Below are positions 1,769 to 21,074 of a DNA stretch of 64,000 nucleotides, in pieces. A program made the translations under genes and the position numbers. The notes beneath the pieces are model-generated. The model had not been told where the DNA came from. It saw only the letters and a program-made list of their open reading frames with translations, and searched no databases. The stretch covers positions 1,627 to 65,626 of the forward strand of contig JAOUIL010000007.1 in assembly GCA_029883975.1 (NCBI GenBank), written 5' to 3'. The DNA is from Betaproteobacteria bacterium (GTDB taxonomy: Bacteria > Pseudomonadota > Gammaproteobacteria > Burkholderiales > SG8-39). How positions within the stretch are numbered: the first letter of the stretch is position 1; each line of letters begins with the position of its first letter.

Positions 1769-1839
1769 GGTGAAATGGCAGTCCGGTGGAGAGCCGACAT
1801 TATGCTCGCGCGCCGCGCCCTCGGTACACTTCCTCCCGC

Positions 1840-2985
1840 ATGCCGAACCTCGGCCGCGCCGTGAACATCGAGGACCTGCGCCGCATGGCCAGACGGCGGC
1901 TGCCGCGCTCGGTGTTCGATTTCTTCGACGGCGGCGCCGAGGACGAGACGACGCTGCGCGGCAACCGGGCCGCCTTCGAGCGCGTGCGCCTGCTGCCCAG
2001 GGTGCTGGTGGACGTGCACGCGGTGGACTCGAGCGTCGATCTGCTCGGCATGCGCTCCAACCTGCCGATGGCCATCGCGCCCACCGGGGCGATCGGCGCG
2101 GGCCGCCACGACGCCGACCTGATGCTGGCGCGCGCGGCGCGCGCCGCGGGCATTCCCTACACCCTGGCGACGCCCGCCACCAACTCGATCGAGGAGATCG
2201 CCGAGCAGGCCGGCGGGCGCCTGTGGTTCCAGCTCTACCTGCTGAAGAACCGCGCGTTCCGCATGAAGCTCGTGCGCCGCGCCGCGGCCGCGGGCTACGA
2301 AGCGCTGCTGGTCACCGTCGACCTCACCACGGGCGGCAAGCGCGAGCGCGATCTGAGGAACGACTTCGCCGCCCCCTTCGTGCCGACCTGGCGCAACTCG
2401 CGCGACGTGCTCTTCAAGCCTTCCTGGCTCATGGGCATGGCGCGCCGCGGCGTGCCGCACATGAAGAACCTCGAGGGCATGCTGCAGAAGCCTCCCCGGC
2501 TCACCGACGTGGCGGCCTCGGTCGGCCGCGAGCTCGACGCCTCCTTCGACTGGGACGAGCTCAGGTCGCTGCGCGACGCCTGGCCCGGCAAGCTCCTGCT
2601 GAAGGGCATCGTCCGGCCCGACGACGCCGAACGTGCGGCAGCCGCAGGCTGCGACGGCGTGGTCGTCTCCAACCACGGCGGGCGGCAGCTGGACGGCGCC
2701 ATCGCCACCGCGGACGCGCTGCCGGCGGTGGCGCGCGCGGTGGGCTCGAGGATCGCGGTGCTGGTGGACGGCGGCGTGCGCCGCGGCGTGGACCTGCTCA
2801 AGGCGCGCGCGCTCGGCGCGCAGGGCGTGCTCACCGGCCGCGCGACGCTGTTCGGCGTGATGGCGGGCGGCGAGGCGGGCGCGCGGCGCGCGATCGAGAT
2901 CCTGGCCGGCGAGTTCGAGCGCGCGTTGATGCTGTGCGGCGTGCCGCGCGCGAGCGACATCCCGGCGGACCTGGTGGCCGCGTGA
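1840..2985 (+). CDS. FMN-dependent alpha-hydroxy acid dehydrogenase/oxidase (LldD / glycolate oxidase family)
   Basis: The N-terminus RLPRSVFDFFDGGAEDETTLRGN and the active-site signature VVSNHGGRQLDGA fit this family. I chose the start at ATG 1840 (MPNLGR...) instead of the track start at 1786 because it matches the family N-terminus. Confidence 0.85.
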   Translation: MPNLGRAVNIEDLRRMARRRLPRSVFDFFDGGAEDETTLRGNRAAFERVRLLPRVLVDVHAVDSSVDLLGMRSNLPMAIAPTGAIGAGRHDADLMLARAARAAGIPYTLATPATNSIEEIAEQAGGRLWFQLYLLKNRAFRMKLVRRAAAAGYEALLVTVDLTTGGKRERDLRNDFAAPFVPTWRNSRDVLFKPSWLMGMARRGVPHMKNLEGMLQKPPRLTDVAASVGRELDASFDWDELRSLRDAWPGKLLLKGIVRPDDAERAAAAGCDGVVVSNHGGRQLDGAIATADALPAVARAVGSRIAVLVDGGVRRGVDLLKARALGAQGVLTGRATLFGVMAGGEAGARRAIEILAGEFERALMLCGVPRASDIPADLVAA

Positions 2986-4181
2986 GCGCGCTTCCTGTCC
3001 TCGTGCTCGGCGGCGGCATCGGCGGCCTGGCCGCGTCGCTCGCGCTGGCGAGGAAGGGCTGCCGCGTGCGCCTGTTCGAGCAGGGCTCCGAGCTGAAGGA
3101 GATCGGCGCCGGCATCCAGCTCGGGCCGAACGTCTACCACATGTTCGAGGTGCTCGGCCTGACCGGCGCGATCGAGCGCTGGTCGGCGCACCCCGAGAAC
3201 CTCATCATGATGGACGCGCTCACCGGCGAGGAGGTGACGCGCATCCCCGTGGGCAGCGGGGCGTTCAGGAAGCGCTTCCGCGGCTACCAGTACGGCGTGA
3301 TCCACCGCGGCGACCTCTACCAGGTGCTGCTCGAGGCCTGCCGCGCCGAAAAGAACATCGAGCTGAACGAAAAGAGGAAGGGCCTCGCCTTCGAGGACAA
3401 GGGCGAGCGGATCGTCCTGCGCATGGAAGGCGGCGAAGCGATCGAGGGCGCGTGCCTCATCGGCGCGGACGGCCTGTGGTCGAGGGTGCGCGCGCAGATC
3501 CTCGGCGACGGCAAGCCGCGCGTCTCGGGCCACATCGCCTACCGCGCCGTGCTGCCGCGCGCCGAGGTGCCCGGCGACCTGTGGCAGAACAACGTCGTGC
3601 TGTGGGCGGGCCCCAGGACGCACCTCGTGCACTATCCCTTGCGCCGCGGCGAGCTCTACAACCTGGTCGCGGTCTTCCACAGCGACAAGTACGAGGAGGG
3701 CTGGGACGTCTACGGCGATCCGCAGGAGCTCGAGCGCAAGTTCGCCAACGAGCGCCCGGAGGTGCAGCGCCTGCTCGCCAAGATCAACGTGTGGAAGATG
3801 TGGGTGCTGTGCGACCGCGAGCCGGCGCGGCACTGGTCGAAGGGCCGCGTCACGCTGCTGGGTGACGCCGCGCACCCGACGCTGCAGTACCTCGCGCAGG
3901 GCGCCAATATGGCGATCGAGGATGCGGTGGTGCTCGCCGCCTGGGCGGAAATCACGAGCTTCGACTGGGAGAAGACCTTCAAGCGCTACGAGGATGCGCG
4001 TTACAAGAGGACGGCGCGCGTGCAGATCATGTCGCGCTACTACGGCGACGCGTACCACGCCGCGGGGGTCGTGCGCGAGCTGAGGAACGACGTGCTCGCC
4101 CCCAGGCCCGGCGCCGCGCCCGACTTCGAGGGCGTGGCGTGGCTGTACGACGGCATCGAGGTGCCTCAGCCGAAGAGGTGA
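2982..4181 (+). CDS. FAD-dependent aromatic monooxygenase, 3-hydroxybenzoate 6-hydroxylase / salicylate hydroxylase-like
   Basis: GTG start overlaps the upstream stop (GTGA at 2982..2985). Motifs present: GGGIGGLAASLAL (GxGxxG), GADGLWSRVR, and GDAAHPTLQYLAQGANMAIEDA. The track ORF 1449..4181 carries a spurious 5' extension. Confidence 0.8.
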   Translation: MSALPVLVLGGGIGGLAASLALARKGCRVRLFEQGSELKEIGAGIQLGPNVYHMFEVLGLTGAIERWSAHPENLIMMDALTGEEVTRIPVGSGAFRKRFRGYQYGVIHRGDLYQVLLEACRAEKNIELNEKRKGLAFEDKGERIVLRMEGGEAIEGACLIGADGLWSRVRAQILGDGKPRVSGHIAYRAVLPRAEVPGDLWQNNVVLWAGPRTHLVHYPLRRGELYNLVAVFHSDKYEEGWDVYGDPQELERKFANERPEVQRLLAKINVWKMWVLCDREPARHWSKGRVTLLGDAAHPTLQYLAQGANMAIEDAVVLAAWAEITSFDWEKTFKRYEDARYKRTARVQIMSRYYGDAYHAAGVVRELRNDVLAPRPGAAPDFEGVAWLYDGIEVPQPKR

Positions 4182-5551
4182 TCGAGCACCAGCTGCTTGA
4201 ACGCGGTGGCCTGCACGGTCCCCGCGGTCAGCAGGTCGCCGCGCGAGCTTATGACGAGCGGCCCGTGCGTCGGGTCGTCGGTCAGCCGCCCGTGCGAGCC
4301 CTTGACCAGGGCCGTGTCCCTGAGCGAGATGACGTCCATCAGCGTGCGAAAGCCGAGCTTCCTCTTGGCGAGCCGCCAGACGCTGGAAAGCTTCGGCAGC
4401 GCGAGCGCCGGGTCGAAGAACAGCTCCACCGGGTCGTAGCCCGGCTTGCGGTGGATGTCCACCGTGCGCGCGAAATCAGGCGCGCGAGCGTCGTCGAGCC
4501 AGTAGTAGTAGCTGAACCAGCGGTCGGCCTTCGAGATGGCGACCAGCTCGCCCGCGCGCTCGTGGTCGAGGCCCATCGCCTGCTTGCCGGCGTCGTCCAG
4601 CACGCGCTCCACGCCCTCCAGCTCTTCCAGCAGCGCGCGCACCGCGTGCAGGCGGCTGCGGTCGTTCACATAGACGTGCGCGATCTGGTGGTCGGCGACG
4701 GCGAAGGCGGCGCTCGCGCCCGGGTCGAGGATCTCGCGCCCGTGCTCCTCCGGTCGCACGGCGACCAGGCCCGCCTCGCGCAGCGCGCGGTTGATGTGCA
4801 CGGCGTCCGTCACCGGCGTGATGCCGTACTCGGAGACGACGATCACGTGGCGCCCGCTCGCCGCCGCGGCGTCGATCAGCGTGCCGCACGCGGCGTCCAG
4901 CTCGCGCAGGTCCTGCTGCACGCGCGGGTGGGACGTGTCGGGGCCGAGGCGCTGCAGGTTGTAGTCGAGGTGCGGCAGGTAGGCGAGCGTCAGCGTGGGA
5001 TCGCGCGTTGCCATGATGTGCAGCGTGGCCTGCGCGATCCAGTCCGTGGAGCTGATGTCGGTGAGCGGGCCCCAGAACTTGAACAGCGGAAACGCCCCGA
5101 GCTTCGCGTCCAGCTCGTCGTGCAGCGCGTAGGGATGCGCGTAGTGGTCGGGGATCTTGCGCCCGTCCGCCGGGTACATCGGGCGCGGCGTCGCGCTCCA
5201 GTCGGCGCTCGAGTACATGTTGTACCACCAGAACATCTGCGCGCAGGTGAATCCGGGGTCGCGCGCCTTCGCCGCCTCCCAGACCTTCTCGCCCGCCACC
5301 AGGCGGTTCGACTGGCGCCACAGCCAGACCTCCGACAGGTCGCGGAAATACCAGCCGTTCGCCACGATGCCGTGGCCGCTCGGCGCGAGCCCGGTGAGCA
5401 GCGTGGACTGCACCGTGCAGGTGACCGCGGGCACGACGGTGTCGAGCGGGCGCAGCGCGCCGCGCGCGGCGAGTCGCTGCAAGTTGGGCGTAAACGCGCC
5501 AACCAGCGCGGGCGACAGGCCGACCGCGAGTATGACGAGCGTGGGGTGCAC
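4166..5551 (-). CDS. eboF: EboF: alkaline phosphatase / nucleotide pyrophosphatase-phosphodiesterase superfamily protein
   Basis: The nucleophile region PAVTCTVQSTLLTGLAPSGHGIVANGWYFRD and the YLPHLDY motif fit the AP/NPP superfamily. It is divergent from eboA. I preferred the in-frame GTG at 5551 (VHPTLVILAVGLS...) because family members start a few residues before the V-I-x-x-x-GL strand. The track start at 5599 (also GTG) would overlap eboA. Confidence 0.8.
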   Translation of the reverse strand: MHPTLVILAVGLSPALVGAFTPNLQRLAARGALRPLDTVVPAVTCTVQSTLLTGLAPSGHGIVANGWYFRDLSEVWLWRQSNRLVAGEKVWEAAKARDPGFTCAQMFWWYNMYSSADWSATPRPMYPADGRKIPDHYAHPYALHDELDAKLGAFPLFKFWGPLTDISSTDWIAQATLHIMATRDPTLTLAYLPHLDYNLQRLGPDTSHPRVQQDLRELDAACGTLIDAAAASGRHVIVVSEYGITPVTDAVHINRALREAGLVAVRPEEHGREILDPGASAAFAVADHQIAHVYVNDRSRLHAVRALLEELEGVERVLDDAGKQAMGLDHERAGELVAISKADRWFSYYYWLDDARAPDFARTVDIHRKPGYDPVELFFDPALALPKLSSVWRLAKRKLGFRTLMDVISLRDTALVKGSHGRLTDDPTHGPLVISSRGDLLTAGTVQATAFKQLVLDHLFG

Positions 5552-5557
5552 GCGGCG

Positions 5558-5563
5558 TAGAAT
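5558..5563 (+). promoter_or_regulatory. -10-like hexamer TAGAAT upstream of eboA (no convincing -35)
   Basis: TAGAAT lies in the 32-bp eboF/eboA divergent spacer. It is followed by the RBS GGAGGGG (5575..5581) and ATG 5584. Confidence 0.25.
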
Positions 5564-5583
5564 ATCAGTCCCATGGAGGGGCA

Positions 5584-6441
5584 ATGAGCGAGGCGGCACG
5601 GACTCTGCTGCGCGGTTGGCTGGGCCGGCGGCTCGACGCGCAGCGCGCGGCGTGGCTCGATGCGCAGGTCGCCACGCTGCGCCAGGATGCGGCCGACGAG
5701 ACGCTCGACATCGCGCTCGGCATGGTGCCGCGCAAGCTCGGCAAGGCGGCGCTCGAGCTGAGGGACGAGGACCTCGCGGCGGCGCGCGCTGCGGTCCCCG
5801 GATGGGACCCGCGCGGCTGGAGCGTGACCGACGCCGCGCGCATCCTGCTGCTCGCCGGGCTGCCCGCGGGCGGCAAGCCCTTCGTCGAGCGCTTCAGGAC
5901 ACTGTGCCAGACGGCCGACGTCGCCGAACTCGAGACGCTGTACCGCGGCCTGCCGCTCTACCCGGAGCCCGCGTCGCTGCTCGACCAGGTGGGCGAGGGC
6001 CTGCGCAGCAACATGCGCAGCGTGTTCGAGGCGATCGCGCACCGCAACCCGTATCCGCGCACCCATTTCGACGCGCACCGCTGGAACCACATGGTGCTGA
6101 AGGCGCTGTTCATCGGCAGCCCGCTCGCGCCGATCCAGGGGCTGGACGAGCGCGCCAACGCCGAGCTGGCGCGCATCATGCTCGACTTCGCGCACGAGCG
6201 CTGGGCGGCGGGGCGCCCGGTGCCGTTCGAGATCTGGCGCTGCGTCGGGCCGTTCGCCGAAGGCAGCGCGGTCGACGACCTGGCGCGGGCGCTCGCGAGC
6301 GACGAGGCGACCGTGCGGCGCGCGGCGGCGCTTGCGCTCGCGGCGAGCCCGGACCGGCGCGCGGCCAAGCTGCTGCAGGACTTTCCCGCGCTCGCCGGCG
6401 ACATCAGCGGCAAGCGGCTCACCTGGGCAACGCTGCAGTAA
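5584..6441 (+). CDS. eboA: EboA-like protein (function unknown)
   Basis: 285-aa ORF with a strong RBS and no catalytic motif I can name. The call rests on its position directly upstream of the TatD-type eboB, within a locus that contains all other ebo families. Confidence 0.65.
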   Translation: MSEAARTLLRGWLGRRLDAQRAAWLDAQVATLRQDAADETLDIALGMVPRKLGKAALELRDEDLAAARAAVPGWDPRGWSVTDAARILLLAGLPAGGKPFVERFRTLCQTADVAELETLYRGLPLYPEPASLLDQVGEGLRSNMRSVFEAIAHRNPYPRTHFDAHRWNHMVLKALFIGSPLAPIQGLDERANAELARIMLDFAHERWAAGRPVPFEIWRCVGPFAEGSAVDDLARALASDEATVRRAAALALAASPDRRAAKLLQDFPALAGDISGKRLTWATLQ

Positions 6442-6470
6442 ACTTGTTCGCTCCCTCCGAGGATCCCGCC

Positions 6471-7397
6471 ATGATGCTCATCGACCCGCACGCGCACATG
6501 ATCTCGCGCACCACCGACGACTACGAGGCGATGGCGGCGGCCGGCGTGGTGGCGGTCATCGAGCCGGCGTTCTGGATCGGCCAGCCGCGCACCAACGTCG
6601 GCTCGTACCTCGACTACCTGTCGTCGATCGTCGGCTTCGAGCGCTTCCGCGCGAGCCAGTTCGGCATCCGCCACTACTGCACCATCGGCCTCAACTCCAA
6701 GGAAGCGAACAACGAGGCGCTCGCCGAAGGCGTGATGGAGCTCATCCCGCGCTTCGCGCTGAAGGAGGGCGTGGTGGCGATCGGCGAGATCGGCTACGAC
6801 GAGCAGACGGCGCTCGAGGACAAGTACTTCCGCGCGCAGCTCGAGCTCGCCAAGCAGCTCGACCTGCCGGTCATGATCCACACCCCGCACCGCGACAAGA
6901 AGCGCGGCACCTCGCGCTCGATGGACGTGTGCGACGAGCACGGCCTCGAGCCGTCCAAGGTGGTGGTCGACCACAACAACGAGGAGACGGTGAAGGAGAC
7001 GCTCGAGCGCGGCTACTGGGCGGCGTTCTCCATCTACCCGAGCACCAAGATGGGCAACGCGCGCATGGTGGAGATCCTGCGCCAGTACGGCGCCAGGCAG
7101 GTCATCGTGGACTCGGCCTGCGACTGGGGCATCTCCGAGCCGCTCGGCGTGGCCAAGACCGCGAAGCTTGCACTGCAGCAAGGAATCCCTGAAGCCGACG
7201 TCAGGCTGGCCTGCTACCAGAACGCGCTCACTGCCTATGGGCAGAGCGGGCAGATCAAGGAAGAGGACTGGCTCAACCCGGTCGCCATCGACCAGCGCGC
7301 TGTCTTTGAAGGGAATTCCATCCTGCGCGGCGGGCGCGAGCCGAAGGTCGAGGCGGGCAAGAACCGCCGCACGCTGGACGATTTGATCATCGAGTAG
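6471..7397 (+). CDS. eboB: EboB: TatD-family metal-dependent hydrolase
   Basis: MMLIDPHAHMISR (HxH metal motif), GEIGYDE and VMIHTPH fit the TatD/amidohydrolase fold. The real start is ATG 6471; the track ORF 5157..7397 has a long spurious extension. Confidence 0.85.
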   Translation: MMLIDPHAHMISRTTDDYEAMAAAGVVAVIEPAFWIGQPRTNVGSYLDYLSSIVGFERFRASQFGIRHYCTIGLNSKEANNEALAEGVMELIPRFALKEGVVAIGEIGYDEQTALEDKYFRAQLELAKQLDLPVMIHTPHRDKKRGTSRSMDVCDEHGLEPSKVVVDHNNEETVKETLERGYWAAFSIYPSTKMGNARMVEILRQYGARQVIVDSACDWGISEPLGVAKTAKLALQQGIPEADVRLACYQNALTAYGQSGQIKEEDWLNPVAIDQRAVFEGNSILRGGREPKVEAGKNRRTLDDLIIE

Positions 7398-7402
7398 CGT
7401 GC

Positions 7403-7423
7403 GCGGCGCGCATGCCGCGCCGC
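7403..7423 (+). terminator. GC hairpin after eboB (possible terminator, no U-tract)
   Basis: GCGGCGCG-CATGC-CGCGCCGC forms an 8-bp perfect stem starting 6 nt after the eboB stop. Confidence 0.3.
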
Positions 7424-7505
7424 CGCAATGCGGGATTTCGCGTTCCTGTCGCTGAGCGAAACGCCGCTCACGGCGCCGCCCTGCGGCGCGTTCATGACAC
7501 GTATA

Positions 7506-7526
7506 CTGAACTTTCCTGACGTTCAG
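7506..7526. promoter_or_regulatory. inverted repeat CTGAAC-N9-GTTCAG overlapping a TATACT -10-like box
   Basis: Seen in the 233-nt gap upstream of the PQQ dehydrogenase gene. TATACT lies at 7502..7507. No good -35 was found. Confidence 0.25.
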
Positions 7527-7630
7527 GGAGGCGGCGGTCGCCGGAAGGCTCGGTGCTCGCCAGGCGCATCGCAGAGGGCCCCGGCGATGCGCGCGGAGGA
7601 GGGGCACAAGATTTCTTCTGGAGGGATCCG

Positions 7631-8929
7631 ATGAAACTCGCAAAGGTCGGTGGAGTGCTGTCCGCCGCCGTCGTGCTCGCGGTCGCGGGCGGGGCGGCGA
7701 TGGCGCAGACCAAGATCAAGCTGGAGCCGCTGGTCACGGCCATCAACACGCCGCTCGCGATGGTGCAGCCGGCGGGCGACGCCCGCATGTTCATCATCGA
7801 GCAGAACGGCAGGGTGAAGATCCTGGAGGGCGGCAAGCTGCGCCCGACGCCGTTCCTCGACATCCGCAGCAAGATCCCGGCGCTGCACCACGACTTCGAC
7901 GAGCGCGGCCTGCTCGGCATCGCCTTCCACCCGAAGTTCAAGGACAACGGCAAGTTCTACGTCGCCTACAGCGCGCACCTGGACTACCAGGCGGACCTCG
8001 GGCAGATGCTGTGGTACTCGCACAGCAACGTGGTCGAGGAGTACACCGTCTCCAAGGGCGACAAGAACACCGCGGACCCGAGCTCGGCGCGGCGCATCCA
8101 CTCGGTGGCCTGGCCGCAGTTCAACCACAACGGCCACTGGATCGGCTTCGGCAAGGACGGCAAGCTGTACATCTCGATGGGTGACGGCGGCTACGCCAAC
8201 GACTGGGGCATCGGCCACAACCCCGCCCTCGGCAACGGGCAGGACATGTCGACGCAGCTGGGCAAGATCCTGCGCATCGATGTGGACGCGCGCACCGGCG
8301 ACAAGCCCTACGGCATCCCGTCCGACAACCCGTTTGTCGGCAACAAGAGCGCCGCGCCGGAGATCTGGGCGAGCGGCCTGCGCAACCCGTGGCGCTGCTC
8401 GTTCGACACGGGAAGCGGCGACCTGTTCTGCGGCGACGTGCAGCAGAACAGCTATGAGGCGATCAAGATCATCGGCAAGGGCCAGAACATGGGCTGGCGG
8501 CGTGTGGAAGGCATCATGCGCTGCTTCGACTACCTGAAGCCCGATGACCACCCGGCCAACTGCGACAAGGCCGGCATCACGCCCGCGATCCTCGAGTACA
8601 ACAACTGCACGGCCAAGCCCCAGGGCTGCAAGGGGATCTCGGTCACGGGCGGCTACGTGTACCAGGGCAAGCACGCGGCGTGGAAGGGCAAGTACATCTT
8701 CGGCGACTGGAGCAAGTCCTTCGGCGAGATGGACGGCCAGATCTTCTTCGCCACCAAGGGCAAGGACGGCAAGTGGAGCATGGAAGTCGCGGAAGTCACC
8801 AACATGAAGGGCAAGCTGCCCTACGTGCTGGCGTTCGCGCAGGACAATGCGGGCGAGGTCTACGCGCTCACTTCCATCACCACGGGCCCGAACGGCTCGC
8901 TCGACACGATCTACAAGATCGTTCCCTGA
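7631..8929 (+). CDS. periplasmic PQQ-dependent sugar dehydrogenase (soluble glucose/sorbosone dehydrogenase beta-propeller family)
   Basis: The RBS GGAGGGA precedes ATG 7631. Signal peptide: MKLAKVGGVLSAAVVLAVAGGAAMAQ. Family motifs: GLLGIAFHP, NHNGHWIGFGKDGKLYISMGDGG, GLRNPWR. Confidence 0.85.
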   Translation: MKLAKVGGVLSAAVVLAVAGGAAMAQTKIKLEPLVTAINTPLAMVQPAGDARMFIIEQNGRVKILEGGKLRPTPFLDIRSKIPALHHDFDERGLLGIAFHPKFKDNGKFYVAYSAHLDYQADLGQMLWYSHSNVVEEYTVSKGDKNTADPSSARRIHSVAWPQFNHNGHWIGFGKDGKLYISMGDGGYANDWGIGHNPALGNGQDMSTQLGKILRIDVDARTGDKPYGIPSDNPFVGNKSAAPEIWASGLRNPWRCSFDTGSGDLFCGDVQQNSYEAIKIIGKGQNMGWRRVEGIMRCFDYLKPDDHPANCDKAGITPAILEYNNCTAKPQGCKGISVTGGYVYQGKHAAWKGKYIFGDWSKSFGEMDGQIFFATKGKDGKWSMEVAEVTNMKGKLPYVLAFAQDNAGEVYALTSITTGPNGSLDTIYKIVP

Positions 8930-8942
8930 GCCGGCTGCAAGC

Positions 8943-8980
8943 CGCCGCCGCCGCGCTCGTGCGCGGCGGCGGCGCGTTTT
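8943..8980 (+). terminator. rho-independent terminator-like hairpin after the PQQ dehydrogenase gene
   Basis: 14-bp perfect GC stem (CGCCGCCGCCGCGC / GCGCGGCGGCGGCG) with loop TCGT, followed by CGTTTT. Confidence 0.6.
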
Positions 8981-9002
8981 CCGGCGTAGTAACATTTGGT
9001 GC

Positions 9003-9356
9003 ATGAGAACGACGTGCGGACCCTTGCGCATCGCCTGCGCGGCCGCGGTGTTGCTGGCCGCGACGACGCTGCAGGCGCAGGAGAAGGCCCCGGTGTTCGA
9101 CAAGGCCTACCTGAGCAGCAAGAAGAACATCGAGCTCGGCAGGAGCGTCTGGGAAGGGCAGTGCCGCCATTGCCACGGCGCGGCGGCCTACCCGGGCAAG
9201 GCGCCCAAGCTCAATCCGGGGCAGCTGGAGCCGGGCTTCATCTACGACCGCGTGACCTACGGCTTCGGCAAGATGCCGGCCTGGAAGGACGTGTTCTCGG
9301 TCGAGCAGCGCAAGGGCGTCGTCGCCTTCATCAAGAGCGACGACTTCTCGCCCTAG
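9003..9356 (+). CDS. class I c-type cytochrome (periplasmic)
   Basis: 117 aa from ATG 9003. It has a signal peptide ...AAAVLLAATTLQAQE, the heme-binding CRHCH (CxxCH) motif, and a distal Met region GFGKMPAW. Confidence 0.75.
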   Translation: MRTTCGPLRIACAAAVLLAATTLQAQEKAPVFDKAYLSSKKNIELGRSVWEGQCRHCHGAAAYPGKAPKLNPGQLEPGFIYDRVTYGFGKMPAWKDVFSVEQRKGVVAFIKSDDFSP

Positions 9357-9709
9357 GCGGCGGGCTTGCGCAGCAACGCGCCGGCGAGGACCACGAGCAG
9401 CACGGCGAGGCCGATCATCACGCCCATGCCCTCGCGCGCGGTTTCCTCCACCCACCACACTTCTTTCAGCCAGAAGCCGGGCACGGTGGGCCAGTAGAAC
9501 ACCATGGCGCCGACGCCCGCAGCGACCGTGGCCCAAAGCAGCCGCTCCCCGGCGACCGACGCGACGCGCGCCGGACGGAAGGCCGCGGCGAACGCCCAGG
9601 CGGCGGGGATCAGGTAGATGACGATCCACAGCAGCGCGTCCGGGTCGTTGTATTGCACGACTGCGAAGGCCGCCATCAGCAACCCGAGTAGGATCAGGAC
9701 GTAACGCAT
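9353..9709 (-). CDS. small four-helix integral membrane protein (resembles TMEM220-type proteins)
   Basis: 118 aa, MRYVLILLGLLMAAFAVVQYNDPD...; four hydrophobic segments and G/C-dominated third codon positions. Only the last 118 codons of track ORF 9353..10915 look real. The family assignment is from memory of the VQYNDPD N-terminus. Confidence 0.6.
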   Translation of the reverse strand: MRYVLILLGLLMAAFAVVQYNDPDALLWIVIYLIPAAWAFAAAFRPARVASVAGERLLWATVAAGVGAMVFYWPTVPGFWLKEVWWVEETAREGMGVMIGLAVLLVVLAGALLRKPAA

Positions 9710-10897
9710 ATGAAGCATTCTACTCAGACGCGCACGGCCACGCACTGGCAGCGCTTCTCGGTGCCCTACGAGTTCCCGGTCGTGTTCACCGAGGGCGTGT
9801 TCGATCCGGACAATCCGGCGCTGCGCGAGGCGTTCAGCCGCCTGGAGCCGGCAAAGCGCCATCGCGCCGTGTTCTTCGTCGATGACGGCCTGCAGGCGGG
9901 CGGCGCGCCGCTGATCGAGGCGATCCAGGCGTACGCGGCGCGCCACGCCGACGCGCTCGAGCTCGCCTGCCCGCCGGTCGCGCTGCCCGGCGGCGAAAAG
10001 ATCAAGACCGACCTGCACTTCGTCGAGAGCATCCAGCAGAAGCTGTTCGACCTGCACCTCGACCGTCACTCGTACGTGGTCGCGGTGGGCGGCGGCGCGG
10101 TGCTGGACGCGGTGGGCCTCGTGGCGGCGACCACCCACCGCGGCGTGCGCCACATCCGCGTGCCCACCACGGTGCTGGCGCAGAACGATTCGGGTGTGGG
10201 CGTGAAGAACGGCGTCAACCTGCTTGGCGTGAAGAATTTCGTCGGCACGTTCGCGCCGCCGTTCGCGGTGCTGAACGACCACGACTTCATCGACTCGCTG
10301 CCGGACCGCGACAAGGTCGCCGGCATGGCCGAGGCGGTCAAGGTGGCGCTGATCCGCGACGCGGAGTTCTTCGGCTGGCTCGAGCGCCACATGGACGACC
10401 TCGCCACCTTCGGGCGCGCGGCGATGCAGCACATGATTCGCCGCTGCGCCGAGCTGCACATGCGCCAGATCGGCCAGGGCGGCGACCCGTTCGAGACCGG
10501 CAGCGCCCGGCCCCTGGACTACGGGCACTGGTCGGCGCACAAGCTCGAGAGCCTGACGCGCCACCACGTGCGCCACGGCGAGGCGGTGGCCATCGGCATG
10601 GCGCTCGATGCGCGCTACTCGGTGCTCGCCGGCCTGCTGCCGGCGGGCGAGGAGCTGCGCATCTGCGCGCTGCTCGAGTACCTCGGCTTCGACCTCTGGC
10701 ACCCGGCGCTCGAGCGCACCGGTACGAGCGGCGAGTGGAGCATCCTCGAGGGCCTGCGTGACTTCCAGGAGCATCTCGGCGGCGAGCTGACCATCACTTT
10801 GCTGGGCGGCATCGGCGTCGGCGTCGAGGTGCACGAGATCGACCACGCGCGCATGCGCCAGGCGATGGCGTGGCTGAAAGCGCGCGCGGGCGGCTGA
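9710..10897 (+). CDS. eboD: EboD: 3-dehydroquinate synthase-like sugar phosphate cyclase
   Basis: 395 aa with DHQS-fold motifs VVAVGGGAVLDAVG, RVPTTVLAQNDSGVGVKNGVN and HGEAVAIGM. It is translationally coupled to eboE. Confidence 0.85.
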   Translation: MKHSTQTRTATHWQRFSVPYEFPVVFTEGVFDPDNPALREAFSRLEPAKRHRAVFFVDDGLQAGGAPLIEAIQAYAARHADALELACPPVALPGGEKIKTDLHFVESIQQKLFDLHLDRHSYVVAVGGGAVLDAVGLVAATTHRGVRHIRVPTTVLAQNDSGVGVKNGVNLLGVKNFVGTFAPPFAVLNDHDFIDSLPDRDKVAGMAEAVKVALIRDAEFFGWLERHMDDLATFGRAAMQHMIRRCAELHMRQIGQGGDPFETGSARPLDYGHWSAHKLESLTRHHVRHGEAVAIGMALDARYSVLAGLLPAGEELRICALLEYLGFDLWHPALERTGTSGEWSILEGLRDFQEHLGGELTITLLGGIGVGVEVHEIDHARMRQAMAWLKARAGG

Positions 10898-12090
10898 TGC
10901 ATCTCCGGTCCGCACGCGACCTCGGACACCTCACCTACTGCACGAACATCCACGCCGGCGAGCCGCTGGATGACGTGATGGCGAGCCTGGCGCGCCACCT
11001 GCCGGCGATCAAGGCGCAGGTGGCGCCCGCGCAGCCCCTCGGCGTCGGGCTGCGCCTGGGCCACGCGGCGGCCGAAGGCCTGCGCGACGCGGACGCGCTG
11101 GCGCGGCTCAAGCGCTTTCTCGCCGAAGGCGGCTACTACGTGTTCACGATCAACGGCTTTCCTTACGGTGCGTTCCATGGGCGCGCCGTGAAGGAGGACG
11201 CGTACAAGCCCGACTGGAGCGATCCGGCGCGGCTCACTTACACCGACCTGCTGGCCGACATCCTGAGCGAGCTGCTGCCTGCGGGGCAGGAGGGCAGCGT
11301 CAGCACGGTGCCGTGCACCTTCAAGCCCTGGGCCGAGGGACGGCTGGCGGCAATCACCGAGAACCTCATCCGCCACGTGGCGCATCTGGTCGGCAACGCC
11401 GCGCGCACGGGCCAGACGATCTCGCTCGCGCTCGAGCCGGAGCCGTATTGCCAGCTCGAGACCATCGAGGAGACCACCCGCTTTTTCAAGGAGCGGCTAT
11501 TCGCGCGCGCGGGCGTTGCGCGGCTCGCGGCGCTCACCGGGCTCCCGGCCGCAGCCGCCGAAGCAGCCATGCGCCGGCACATCGGCGTGTGCTACGACGT
11601 CTGCCACGCCGCAGTGGAATTCGAGGACCCGAAGGAAAGCATCGCGCGGCTGCGCACCGAGGGCATCCTGATCGGCAAGCTGCAGCTGAGCTCGGCGCTC
11701 AGGATCGCGGCGTTCGATGCGGCGAGCGCGCGCCAGCTCGCCGCCTTCGCTGAGCCGGTCTACCTGCACCAGGCGGTGCAGAAGGCCAACGGGTCCCTGA
11801 CGCGCTTCGTGGACCTGCCGCAGGCGCTCGCCGCCGGCGGCGCCGCGGCGGGCGCGGAGCTGCGCGTGCACTTCCACGTGCCGGTGTTCCTCGAGCAGAT
11901 GGAGCATTTCGGCACCACGCAGGCGTTTCTTGCGCAGATCCTCGCGCAGCACCGCGCCGAGCCGATCAGCCGCCACCTCGAGGTCGAGACCTACACCTGG
12001 GACGTCCTGCCCAAGGCCTACCGGACGGCCGAGCTCAGCACGGCGATCGCGCGCGAGCTCGACTGGGTCAAGGCGCGGCTGCTGCAGTGA
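10897..12090 (+). CDS. eboE: EboE: xylose isomerase-like TIM-barrel protein
   Basis: ATG 10897 overlaps the eboD stop (TGATG). The N-terminus HLTYCTNIHAGEPLDDV is as I recall for EboE. The track start at 10870 is probably too long. Confidence 0.75.
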   Translation: MHLRSARDLGHLTYCTNIHAGEPLDDVMASLARHLPAIKAQVAPAQPLGVGLRLGHAAAEGLRDADALARLKRFLAEGGYYVFTINGFPYGAFHGRAVKEDAYKPDWSDPARLTYTDLLADILSELLPAGQEGSVSTVPCTFKPWAEGRLAAITENLIRHVAHLVGNAARTGQTISLALEPEPYCQLETIEETTRFFKERLFARAGVARLAALTGLPAAAAEAAMRRHIGVCYDVCHAAVEFEDPKESIARLRTEGILIGKLQLSSALRIAAFDAASARQLAAFAEPVYLHQAVQKANGSLTRFVDLPQALAAGGAAAGAELRVHFHVPVFLEQMEHFGTTQAFLAQILAQHRAEPISRHLEVETYTWDVLPKAYRTAELSTAIARELDWVKARLLQ

Positions 12091-12935
12091 AGCTGCGCAG
12101 CGCGCTCGCGCTCGGCCGCGTTTCCAACCTGCCGACGGTGTGGAGCAACGCGCTCGCCGGCGCGGTGCTGGCGGGCGCCGCTGCGTTCGGCGCGCAATTC
12201 GCGGTGATGCTCGTCGCGTTCTCGCTGTTCTACACCGGCGGCATGTTCCTCAACGACGCCTTCGACGCGCCGTGGGACGCGAAGCAGCGCCCGGAGCGGC
12301 CGATTCCCGCGGGCGAGGCGAGCCGGCGCGCGGTGTTCGGCTGGGGCTTCGGCATGATGGCGCTCGGCGTCGCGCTGCTCGCGTGGATCGGCGTGGCGCC
12401 CGCGCTCGCCGGCGCCGCGCTGGCGGCGACGATCACGTACTACGACTGGCATCACAAGGGCAACGTCTTCAGCCCGGTGGTCATGGGCCTGTGCCGCGTG
12501 CTGGTGTACGTGTCGGCGGGCCTGTGCATCACGCGCGCGCTGCCCGAAGCGCTGTGGATCGGCGCCGCGCTGATGCTCTGCTACCTCATCGGCCTCACCT
12601 ATATCGCGAAGCAGGAGAACCTCGGCAGGGTGGAGAATCTCTGGCCGCTCGCCTTTCTCGCGGCGCCCGTGGCCTACGGCGCCTGGCTGGCGCTTGCGCA
12701 GCCGGTCGTGGGGCTCTTCTGGCTCTTTTTTGCCGGCTGGATGCTGGTGGCGCTCTGGTACCTGCGGCGGCGCCGCAAGGGCGATATCCCGCGCGCGGTG
12801 GTGAGCCTGATCGCCGGCATCTCGCTGCTGGATGCGCTGCTGATCGCGGGAACCGGCGCGCTCGCGCTCGCCGTCGTTGCGCTCGCCGGCTTCGGCGTGA
12901 CGCTGTTCTTCCAGCGCTACGTCGCGGGGACGTAG
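12087..12935 (+). CDS. eboC: EboC: UbiA-family membrane prenyltransferase
   Basis: GTG 12087 overlaps the eboE stop (GTGA). It has the first Asp-rich motif LNDAFDAPWD (NDxxDxxxD) and is hydrophobic throughout with multiple TM helices. Confidence 0.85.
   Translation: MKLRSALALGRVSNLPTVWSNALAGAVLAGAAAFGAQFAVMLVAFSLFYTGGMFLNDAFDAPWDAKQRPERPIPAGEASRRAVFGWGFGMMALGVALLAWIGVAPALAGAALAATITYYDWHHKGNVFSPVVMGLCRVLVYVSAGLCITRALPEALWIGAALMLCYLIGLTYIAKQENLGRVENLWPLAFLAAPVAYGAWLALAQPVVGLFWLFFAGWMLVALWYLRRRRKGDIPRAVVSLIAGISLLDALLIAGTGALALAVVALAGFGVTLFFQRYVAGT

Positions 12936-19248: not shown

Positions 19249-21074
<1,826 letters not shown>

Follow-up and report, generated by a model that had tools for sequence, protein, structure and literature searches.

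Among bacterial gene clusters whose chemistry is not yet fully established, those of the ebo genes rank with the most widespread. They have been counted in 3,304 of 124,295 genomes, about 3%, in a 2026 preprint (bioRxiv 10.64898/2026.05.21.724671), in which ebo is assigned to the biosynthesis of the meroterpenoid thallusin, an algal morphogen. EboC farnesylates a trihydroxyquinaldate, and for the oxidative step in which saccharoquinoline rearranges to thallusin no enzyme has been assigned (2026 preprint). EboD makes a C6 cyclitol from mannose-6-phosphate, and thallusin has been described as a metal chelator. Among Proteobacteria, Tranquillimonas alkanivorans DSM 19547 is a confirmed producer of thallusin. 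The ebo genes have been linked also to scytonemin export and to nematode repellence, and in an earlier model the scytonemin monomer is exported to the periplasm, where ScyE, a protein of the beta-propeller clan, acts on it. Non-ebo genes inserted in ebo clusters were noted by Yurchenko (2016) and left unanalysed; in the portions of the literature available, they are spelled out for cyanobacteria only (glycosyltransferase, tyrA, dsbA). The EDB variant of Pseudomonas fluorescens NZI7, as far as secondary accounts describe it, features six ebo homologues and three extra genes of unassigned function, some with signal peptides. Here, an ebo cluster is described in which eboB and eboD are separated by genes encoding a beta-propeller, a cytochrome c and a TMEM220-family membrane protein. 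It lies in a 64,000-nucleotide (nt) stretch of DNA, hereafter the window, from a betaproteobacterium of the order Burkholderiales (contig JAOUIL010000007.1, positions 1,627 to 65,626). The same module recurs next to ebo genes in many other Proteobacteria, which suggests that a redox step in the periplasm is connected with the ebo (thallusin-type) pathway. The ebo cluster itself is known. Its link with the trio appears undescribed, as the original prediction, made from the DNA alone, had surmised: in the literature searched, no paper pairs sorbosone or pyrroloquinoline quinone (PQQ) dehydrogenases with ebo genes.

All six ebo genes surround the trio, within positions 4166-12935 (Table 1). The open reading frames (ORFs) of the window, which has a G+C content of about 70%, were filtered by codon-position GC and then searched with Pfam and NCBIfam profiles. 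The three additional genes are found where the original prediction had placed them. They are real coding genes, as indicated by Pfam matches, by codon-position GC (0.57/0.43/0.96 for the propeller, 0.70/0.46/0.92 for the TMEM220-family protein), and by the calling of the same nine genes on an 85-kb metagenome contig 99.9% identical to the window. The four sequence motifs reported earlier are all in place. The propeller, a member of the glucose/sorbosone dehydrogenase (GSDH) family, features both GLLGIAFHP and GLRNPWR, and its N-terminus, MKLAKVGGVLSAAVVLAVAGGAAMA/QT, reads by inspection as a Sec signal peptide. The cytochrome has the haem site CRHCH, the distal Met in the motif GKMPAW and a hydrophobic N-terminus, signal-like by eye, ending in ...TLQA/QE. 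The antisense membrane protein, in which four helices are counted by inspection, belongs to the TMEM220 family (PF15071). Across 63 homologues of the latter the motifs QxNDPD and E.AREGMG are conserved, and no conserved His or Cys was found; the protein is hence not expected to be a redox carrier. The closest named species genome is an uncultured Burkholderiales metagenome-assembled genome (MAG), in which the propeller is 96% identical. In L121, a close relative whose EboB shares 91% identity with that of the window, eboB is immediately followed by eboD, and the split found in the window is thus a real insertion or relocation state.

Several described systems can be compared with the trio. The propeller shares with sGDH of Acinetobacter and YliI/Asd of E. 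coli the PF07995 family, the periplasmic six-bladed fold and the equivalents of His144, Arg228 and Asn229. It differs from both, however, in lacking their Q/H-G-P motif and C-terminal Arg-x-Arg and in scoring far under the TIGR03606 cut-off, and it has a dedicated cytochrome c gene, whereas E. coli YliI has none. The Hedgehog-interacting protein (HHIP) is the best solved match and carries the same C-terminal blade motif, but it functions as a signalling receptor in eukaryotes, lacks a redox partner, and features His-Asp where the window protein has Arg-Asn. Pairs made of a quinoprotein dehydrogenase and a cytochrome c, such as PedF c550 with the PQQ alcohol dehydrogenases, follow the same logic, the gene of a periplasmic enzyme lying next to that of a small class I cytochrome c devoted to it, and the window cytochrome weakly matches the NCBIfam model of c550 PedF. 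The partner enzymes of PedF-type cytochromes are instead eight-bladed PF01011 propellers, and near eboB only an analogue found in Salipiger is of that type. ScyD, ScyE and ScyF of the cyanobacterial scytonemin-ebo locus, set beside the window protein by description, are likewise periplasmic proteins of the beta-propeller clan encoded with ebo, and ScyE has been proposed for a final periplasmic oxidative step. They fall into other propeller families (NHL, PEP-CTERM proteins), are restricted to cyanobacteria and lack a cytochrome c partner. The three extra genes of the EDB variant, compared through secondary description only, would fit a propeller/cytochrome/membrane trio, and may or may not correspond to that of the window.

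Recurrence of the dehydrogenase and cytochrome c genes in or next to other ebo clusters had been set beforehand as a test, and proved strongly positive in two independently anchored samples. More than 7,700 relatives of the propeller were found at E <= 1e-20 in the database, the top 120 being 77-87% identical. Scanning one genome per species gave 480 relatives, and the best 80 of these (66-96% identity) have been analysed along with two further loci, 82 in all. A cytochrome c gene comes directly after the propeller gene in all the 73 orthologous loci whose right flank extends for 900 nt or more. An ebo gene is located 63-2041 nt from the propeller gene in 53 of the 82 loci. Flanks are too short to judge in 16 loci, and 53 of 66 judgeable loci (80%) are accordingly ebo-linked. 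Linked loci of Betaproteobacteria belong to Burkholderiales, namely the clade of the window, a Limnohabitans/Comamonadaceae clade and Zeimonas, with the culturable Zeimonas arvi CC-CFT501 (L046) as one carrier; the others were found in Alpha- and Gammaproteobacteria (Hyphomicrobiales, Rhizobiaceae, Afifella, Rhodospirillales, Thalassobaculaceae, Granulosicoccaceae). The G+C content of the loci ranges from 0.30 to 0.71. A chance insertion limited to one lineage was considered, and rejected by both the genome and the metagenome samples.

The organization of the linked loci varies. Combining the two samples, 26 raw gene-order strings were obtained, which reduce to about 14-16 distinct orders after merging truncated contigs. 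Examples are F<A>B>G>c>T<D>E>C> (the window), T<D>E>C>F<A>B>G>c>, G>c>A<C<E<D<F<B< and D>E>C>G>c>A>B>, where G, c and T denote propeller, cytochrome c and TMEM220, and the other letters the ebo genes. TMEM220 genes are found either after the cytochrome gene or head-to-head with eboD. A search anchored on TMEM220 retrieved close relatives only, all with the window-type order. In a Granulosicoccaceae MAG (L084 1348-1908 and 3528-4397) the cytochrome is di-haem, with the sites CAVCH and CRHCH. On the same contig, eboD and eboF were not seen, and the propeller gene is separated from eboB by a Nudix-family ORF resembling isopentenyl-diphosphate isomerase. Besides the main orthologue, and at times alongside it, a more distant paralogue of the GSDH family (25-59% identical) is repeatedly found next to ebo clusters (Table 1).

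The second sample was obtained by scanning metagenome contigs with the EboB protein of Salipiger, and consists of 29 loci, chosen without reference to the propeller, which have at least five ebo genes each. The propeller orthologue is present in 11 of these near-complete clusters and only the distant GSDH paralogue (25-59% identity) in four; a GSDH-family gene is thus found in 15 of 29. Module-positive and module-negative clusters are interleaved when ranked by EboB similarity to the window (68-92%), which argues for repeated gain, loss or relocation of the module. A different solution is found in Salipiger sp. CCB-MM3. On plasmid 2 of this strain (L097 20500-22988) two genes come after eboB, one for a four-helix membrane protein of 114 aa and the other for an eight-bladed PQQ dehydrogenase of 715 aa (PF01011, E 2e-190). 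This pair is a non-homologous analogue of the trio, located in the same slot after eboB; a nearly identical copy of the ebo genes, on plasmid 1 (L096), features at that place a gap of 1.2 kb without annotation. Ketogulonicigenium plasmids encode a DUF7133 'dehydrogenase' together with a c-type cytochrome 5 kb downstream of eboB. The occurrence of different periplasmic dehydrogenases in the same neighbourhood fits a shared functional need better than hitch-hiking. Accessory genes of these other kinds are rare, as neither the eight-bladed PQQ dehydrogenase nor DUF7133, nor the ferritin-like pair described below, was found in the EboB-anchored loci.

The trio is an autonomous and conserved module, accessory rather than core, frequent and strongly linked to ebo. 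Some functional coupling between the trio and the ebo genes is judged probable. What form the coupling takes is less certain. Judged on sequence features and gene neighbourhoods, the chances are about even that propeller, cytochrome c and membrane partner make up a periplasmic oxidoreductase module, accessory to ebo, whose substrate is a metabolite dependent on the ebo genes. Such a module is favoured by the recurrent neighbourhood in both samples, the constant cytochrome, the active-site residues kept in all orthologues, the Salipiger analogue, the saccharoquinoline step still without an enzyme, the parallel with cyanobacterial ScyD/E/F and, weakly, a gene distribution in Maribacter (see below). 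The Sec-exported six-bladed propeller would be a periplasmic oxidoreductase working on a metabolite that the Ebo enzymes produce, or that depends on them, and would address the periplasm-exposed polyhydroxylated head group of a prenylated, cyclitol-derived product. Candidate substrates are a trihydroxy-quinoline meroterpenoid (saccharoquinoline/thallusin type) or an earlier cyclitol-derived intermediate. The soluble cytochrome c of the adjacent gene would take up the electrons and deliver them to the respiratory chain. The TMEM220-family protein would probably serve as inner-membrane anchor, or as hand-over partner for a lipophilic substrate. An ebo-linked periplasmic redox role, as originally proposed, is still the best reading, favoured by the recurrence, the signal-like N-termini and the constant cytochrome. 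A simple polyol is less likely as substrate: the assignment of ebo to thallusin makes a prenylated polyhydroxy-quinoline or a cyclitol-derived intermediate more likely. The assumption of an ebo-dependent delivery to the periplasm has in turn acquired a competitor in thallusin biosynthesis (2026 preprint).

A more specific version can be formulated, in which the propeller-cytochrome c pair and TMEM220 form a periplasmic oxidase that attacks a saccharoquinoline-type meroterpenoid at its trihydroxy-quinoline ring, giving a hydroxy-quinone, and thereby triggers the ring-opening rearrangement to thallusin or to a lineage-specific analogue. It would entail that a fusion protein of Maribacter does the same job in Bacteroidota, and in this detailed form is improbable. 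The fusion, of a cytochrome c to a COG2133 (YliI-type) propeller, is listed in Table S3 of bioRxiv 10.64898/2026.05.21.724671 (Maribacter sp. UH1 locus 788), and belongs to a set of 91 genes that all eight thallusin-producing Maribacter have and the single non-producer lacks. Its gene is not near ebo (loci 2608-2612), and the preprint does not mention it in its main text. With one non-producer as contrast, its distribution is a weak phyletic hint. In broader terms, a redox module that tracks ebo through rearrangements in three proteobacterial classes, and is replaced by another PQQ dehydrogenase in at least one lineage, provides a concrete candidate for the periplasmic compartment and for a late oxidative step. 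The relatives counted above also mark out a large bacterial subfamily of HHIP-like propellers with an obligatory cytochrome c partner.

Several data on distribution, and on the propeller itself, weigh against an accessory oxidoreductase of the ebo pathway, and some of them speak for other explanations. In 13 loci of the propeller-anchored sample, P0037 and P0053 among them, at least 5 kb to either side of the propeller gene are free of ebo genes, and the idea that the trio strictly depends on ebo was rejected on these grounds. The ebo-less loci (at least 13, from Burkholderiales, 5-10 kb checked) all have the order G>c>T> on one strand. In the propeller tree they correspond to Rubrivivax/Rhizobacter/Piscinibacter-type clades nested among ebo-linked clades; in L047, which belongs to the former, eboF lies immediately downstream of the trio. 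No GSDH-family gene was found near 14 of the 29 EboB-anchored clusters, and no homologue of any trio gene within 12-15 kb of eight ebo clusters carried on plasmids, which represent seven genera (Azospirillum, Mycetohabitans, Roseivivax, Ketogulonicigenium, Salipiger with two plasmids, Deinococcus, Aureibacter). Thallusin producers of the Bacteroidota have a plain six-gene ebo operon (2026 preprint), and the module is therefore not essential for the core product. The trio might accordingly be a general periplasmic aldose or sugar dehydrogenase, of YliI/sGDH kind and acting on free sugars, which feeds respiration, leaves the ebo product untouched, and co-travels with ebo by shared regulation, mobility or sugar pools. 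Its standing alone among unrelated neighbours, the many ebo clusters devoid of it, the Pfam family being that of glucose/sorbosone dehydrogenases, and a terminator-like hairpin parting the propeller gene from downstream genes would all agree with this. Passive hitch-hiking, however, does not predict an adjacency that outlasts some 14-16 rearrangements in three proteobacterial classes over such a range of G+C content, nor is it easily reconciled with the contrast between 80% of judgeable loci linked to ebo and ebo occurring in about 3% of genomes. A non-homologous PQQ dehydrogenase in the same slot in Salipiger, and the absence from the propeller of half of the sGDH/YliI cofactor ligands, also make a general sugar dehydrogenase unlikely.

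The active site has been examined by aligning the window protein and 13 orthologues with sGDH and YliI, comparing HHIP as well. The YliI sequence was taken from the E. coli genome; that of sGDH agreed with the length of 454 and with 13 literature-numbered positions. The equivalents of His144 (sGDH numbering; the catalytic base) and of Arg228-Asn229, which bind PQQ in sGDH, are invariant in the window protein and its orthologues. The Gln/His246-Gly247-Pro248 Ca/PQQ motif is replaced by Val-Gln-Gln, and Gln231 by Trp. Arg406 and Arg408, the R-x-R contacting PQQ carboxylates, are absent, Tyr-Val-Leu aligning with the R-I-R of YliI, and the C-terminal blade motif Y-V-L-A-F recalls H-I-L-G-F of HHIP. 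The Lys377 site is ambiguous (Ser, or Lys shifted by one position). The match to the non_repeat_PQQ model TIGR03606 covers only residues 34-296 and scores 62 bits, against a cut-off of 434.55. No pqq gene was found in the window, where about 45 ORFs were scanned with Pfam. This is not decisive, as E. coli has YliI without making PQQ. In a PDB search the closest solved structures are HHIP propellers (E 1e-38, residues 33-431), which are non-enzymatic; sGDH has an E value of 3e-15, and together with other PQQ sugar dehydrogenases spans 1e-15 to 1e-8. To our knowledge, the known enzymes of the GSDH family (sGDH, YliI) oxidise aldose hemiacetals, not phenols or cyclitols. Of the secreted PQQ-dependent propeller that had been proposed, the GSDH domain and the signal-like N-terminus hold, while PQQ dependence is not secure, HHIP being closer and several PQQ/Ca ligands absent; the label is an annotation habit which the residues do not bear out. 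A plain PQQ sugar dehydrogenase was not accepted, as both the PDB search and the residue comparison point away from it. The protein is best described as an HHIP-like propeller of the GSDH family, probably catalytic, given its constant cytochrome partner and the retained His, Arg and Asn.

The same comparison bears on whether the propeller is an enzyme at all. It could be a non-enzymatic, HHIP-like binder, such as a periplasmic receptor, chaperone or carrier for a lipophilic ebo product or metal chelate, with the cytochrome c reducing, for instance, a bound Fe(III) chelate. The full-length match to HHIP, the HHIP-like C-terminal blade lacking the R-I-R of YliI, the missing Gly-Pro motif and the metal chelation ascribed to thallusin are all in line with such a role. 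The catalytic His and the Arg-Asn pair are, however, invariant here, and Arg-Asn was lost in HHIP; a cytochrome c partner in 73 of 73 loci is a dehydrogenase signature, and the Salipiger analogue is a bona fide PQQ-domain dehydrogenase. A mere binder is for these reasons held unlikely too. Alternatively, the module could act upstream of the pathway or beside it, oxidising or salvaging an extracellular or periplasmic cyclitol or sugar (inositol, inosose, mannose-type), and thus feed or recycle the EboD branch, or degrade a signal. The cyclitol made by EboD from mannose-6-phosphate would be compatible with salvage, as would the position of the propeller gene, mostly directly after eboB and near eboD, and the Gfo/Idh/MocA oxidoreductases and sugar-phosphate isomerase encoded in the Ketogulonicigenium ebo cluster. 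Yet the loci examined show no consistent link between the module and a transporter of sugars or cyclitols, GSDH-type enzymes are not known to act on cyclitols, and no role is left for TMEM220; salvage is quite improbable.

Co-transcription of the trio with the flanking ebo genes, across positions 7397-9710, had been named as a point to check in the original prediction. A terminator-like hairpin of conserved position argues against it in its simple form. Directly past the propeller stop codon there is a hairpin with a perfect 14-bp G+C stem followed by UUUU (-48.3 kcal/mol, z -4.1 on folding). In most of 22 related loci that were folded, a hairpin plus T-run is found at the same site, its position but not its sequence being kept. 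In lower-GC lineages canonical intrinsic terminators occur there, and canonical T-runs were seen in L054, L062, L027 and L090. The hairpin stands between the propeller and cytochrome c genes, though these are always adjacent and co-oriented. Its conservation suggests that the propeller gene is probably the last of a transcription unit, or is followed by an attenuator which sets the enzyme-to-cytochrome ratio. A simple promoter/terminator scan found no sigma-70 promoters, and did not flag the hairpin either, which has only four T. The spacer between eboB and the propeller gene has no significant structure on folding (z -0.8). The stop codons of the cytochrome c and TMEM220 genes overlap (CTAG, 9353-9356), and the TMEM220 start abuts the ATG of eboD on the opposite strand. 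This leaves no space for divergent promoters, and TMEM220 is therefore an antisense gene embedded in the ebo transcription path. In the window clade eboDEC would be transcribed either from inside the TMEM220 gene or via read-through antisense to it. About 190 nt separate the TMEM220 and eboD starts in alphaproteobacterial relatives (e.g. L065).

Table 1. Features of the window's ebo cluster, and sites of distant GSDH paralogues in other loci
Feature	Position	Strand	Product and profile matches
eboF	4166..5551	-	type I phosphodiesterase / nucleotide pyrophosphatase family; PF01663, 213 bits; divergent from eboA
eboA	5584..6441	+	NCBIfam EboA_domain NF035938, 177.6 bits (cut-off 50)
eboB	6471..7397	+	TatD-like hydrolase; PF01026, 61 bits
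propeller gene	7631..8929	+	GSDH-family six-bladed beta-propeller, HHIP-like, putative dehydrogenase, 432 aa; PF07995, 118.6 bits (cut-off 25)
stem-loop	8939..8980	+	short T-run; terminator-/attenuator-like, directly 3' of the propeller stop codon
cytochrome c gene	9003..9356	+	class I c-type cytochrome, secreted, 117 aa; PF13442, 50.9 bits (cut-off 27)
TMEM220 gene	9353..9709	-	four-helix membrane protein, 118 aa; PF15071, 52.2 bits (cut-off 27), residues 12-107
eboD	9710..10897	+	sugar phosphate cyclase, DHQS-like; NF004852, 571.9 bits (cut-off 333); also PF01761, PF24621
eboE	10897..12090	+	TIM-barrel; NF035939 TIM_EboE, 454 bits (cut-off 250)
eboC	12087..12935	+	UbiA-like prenyltransferase; PF01040, 50.2 bits (cut-off 34.2)
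distant GSDH paralogues	L020 4377-5675; L047 472-1815; L103/L104 between eboF and eboA; L062/L064/L076 downstream of eboA		

Some assignments of the ebo genes listed in Table 1 have additional support. The window EboB is 80-95% identical to EboB of other ebo loci, and a 461-aa gene is called at the eboF position on the 99.9% identical contig, where PF28008 is recorded for eboA. The latter scores 232 bits with the full-length model NF035937, under the cut-off of 320. Similarly, eboC is under cut-off with NF035940 EboC (121.9 bits, cut-off 250), and its position after eboD-eboE is kept in all related loci. In L008 (JGI contig Ga0224505_10001814), otherwise 99.96% identical to the window, eboC is broken at about 6281 by a 1-nt indel, either an assembly error or a natural frameshift variant.

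Other genes have been found around ebo clusters. In the window, genes for an FMN-dependent dehydrogenase and a FAD monooxygenase abut eboF (1774-4181), and a 3-hydroxyanthranilate 3,4-dioxygenase is encoded at 19508-20086, 6.5 kb downstream of eboC. The related cluster L181 is flanked by FMN-dehydrogenase and DHDPS genes, neighbours that L010 does not have. Genes for a hypothetical protein of about 600 aa and a PF12902 ferritin-like protein lie directly upstream of ebo in both Mycetohabitans (L092 11409-14427) and Aureibacter, a member of the Bacteroidota (L099 8221-11281). The hypothetical proteins, one from a betaproteobacterium and the other from a Cytophagales plasmid, are 38% identical, and the pair may be another accessory module of ebo clusters. 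A search with the 633-aa Mycetohabitans protein retrieved a homologue in Pseudomonas cichorii (L180), where the pair is not ebo-linked. Finally, TctABC tripartite tricarboxylate transporter genes flank ebo on two Rhodobacterales plasmids, of Roseivivax (L093 21348-24433) and Ketogulonicigenium (L094 16970-20143). Thallusin is a tricarboxylic acid, and the association may reflect a link to uptake or export.

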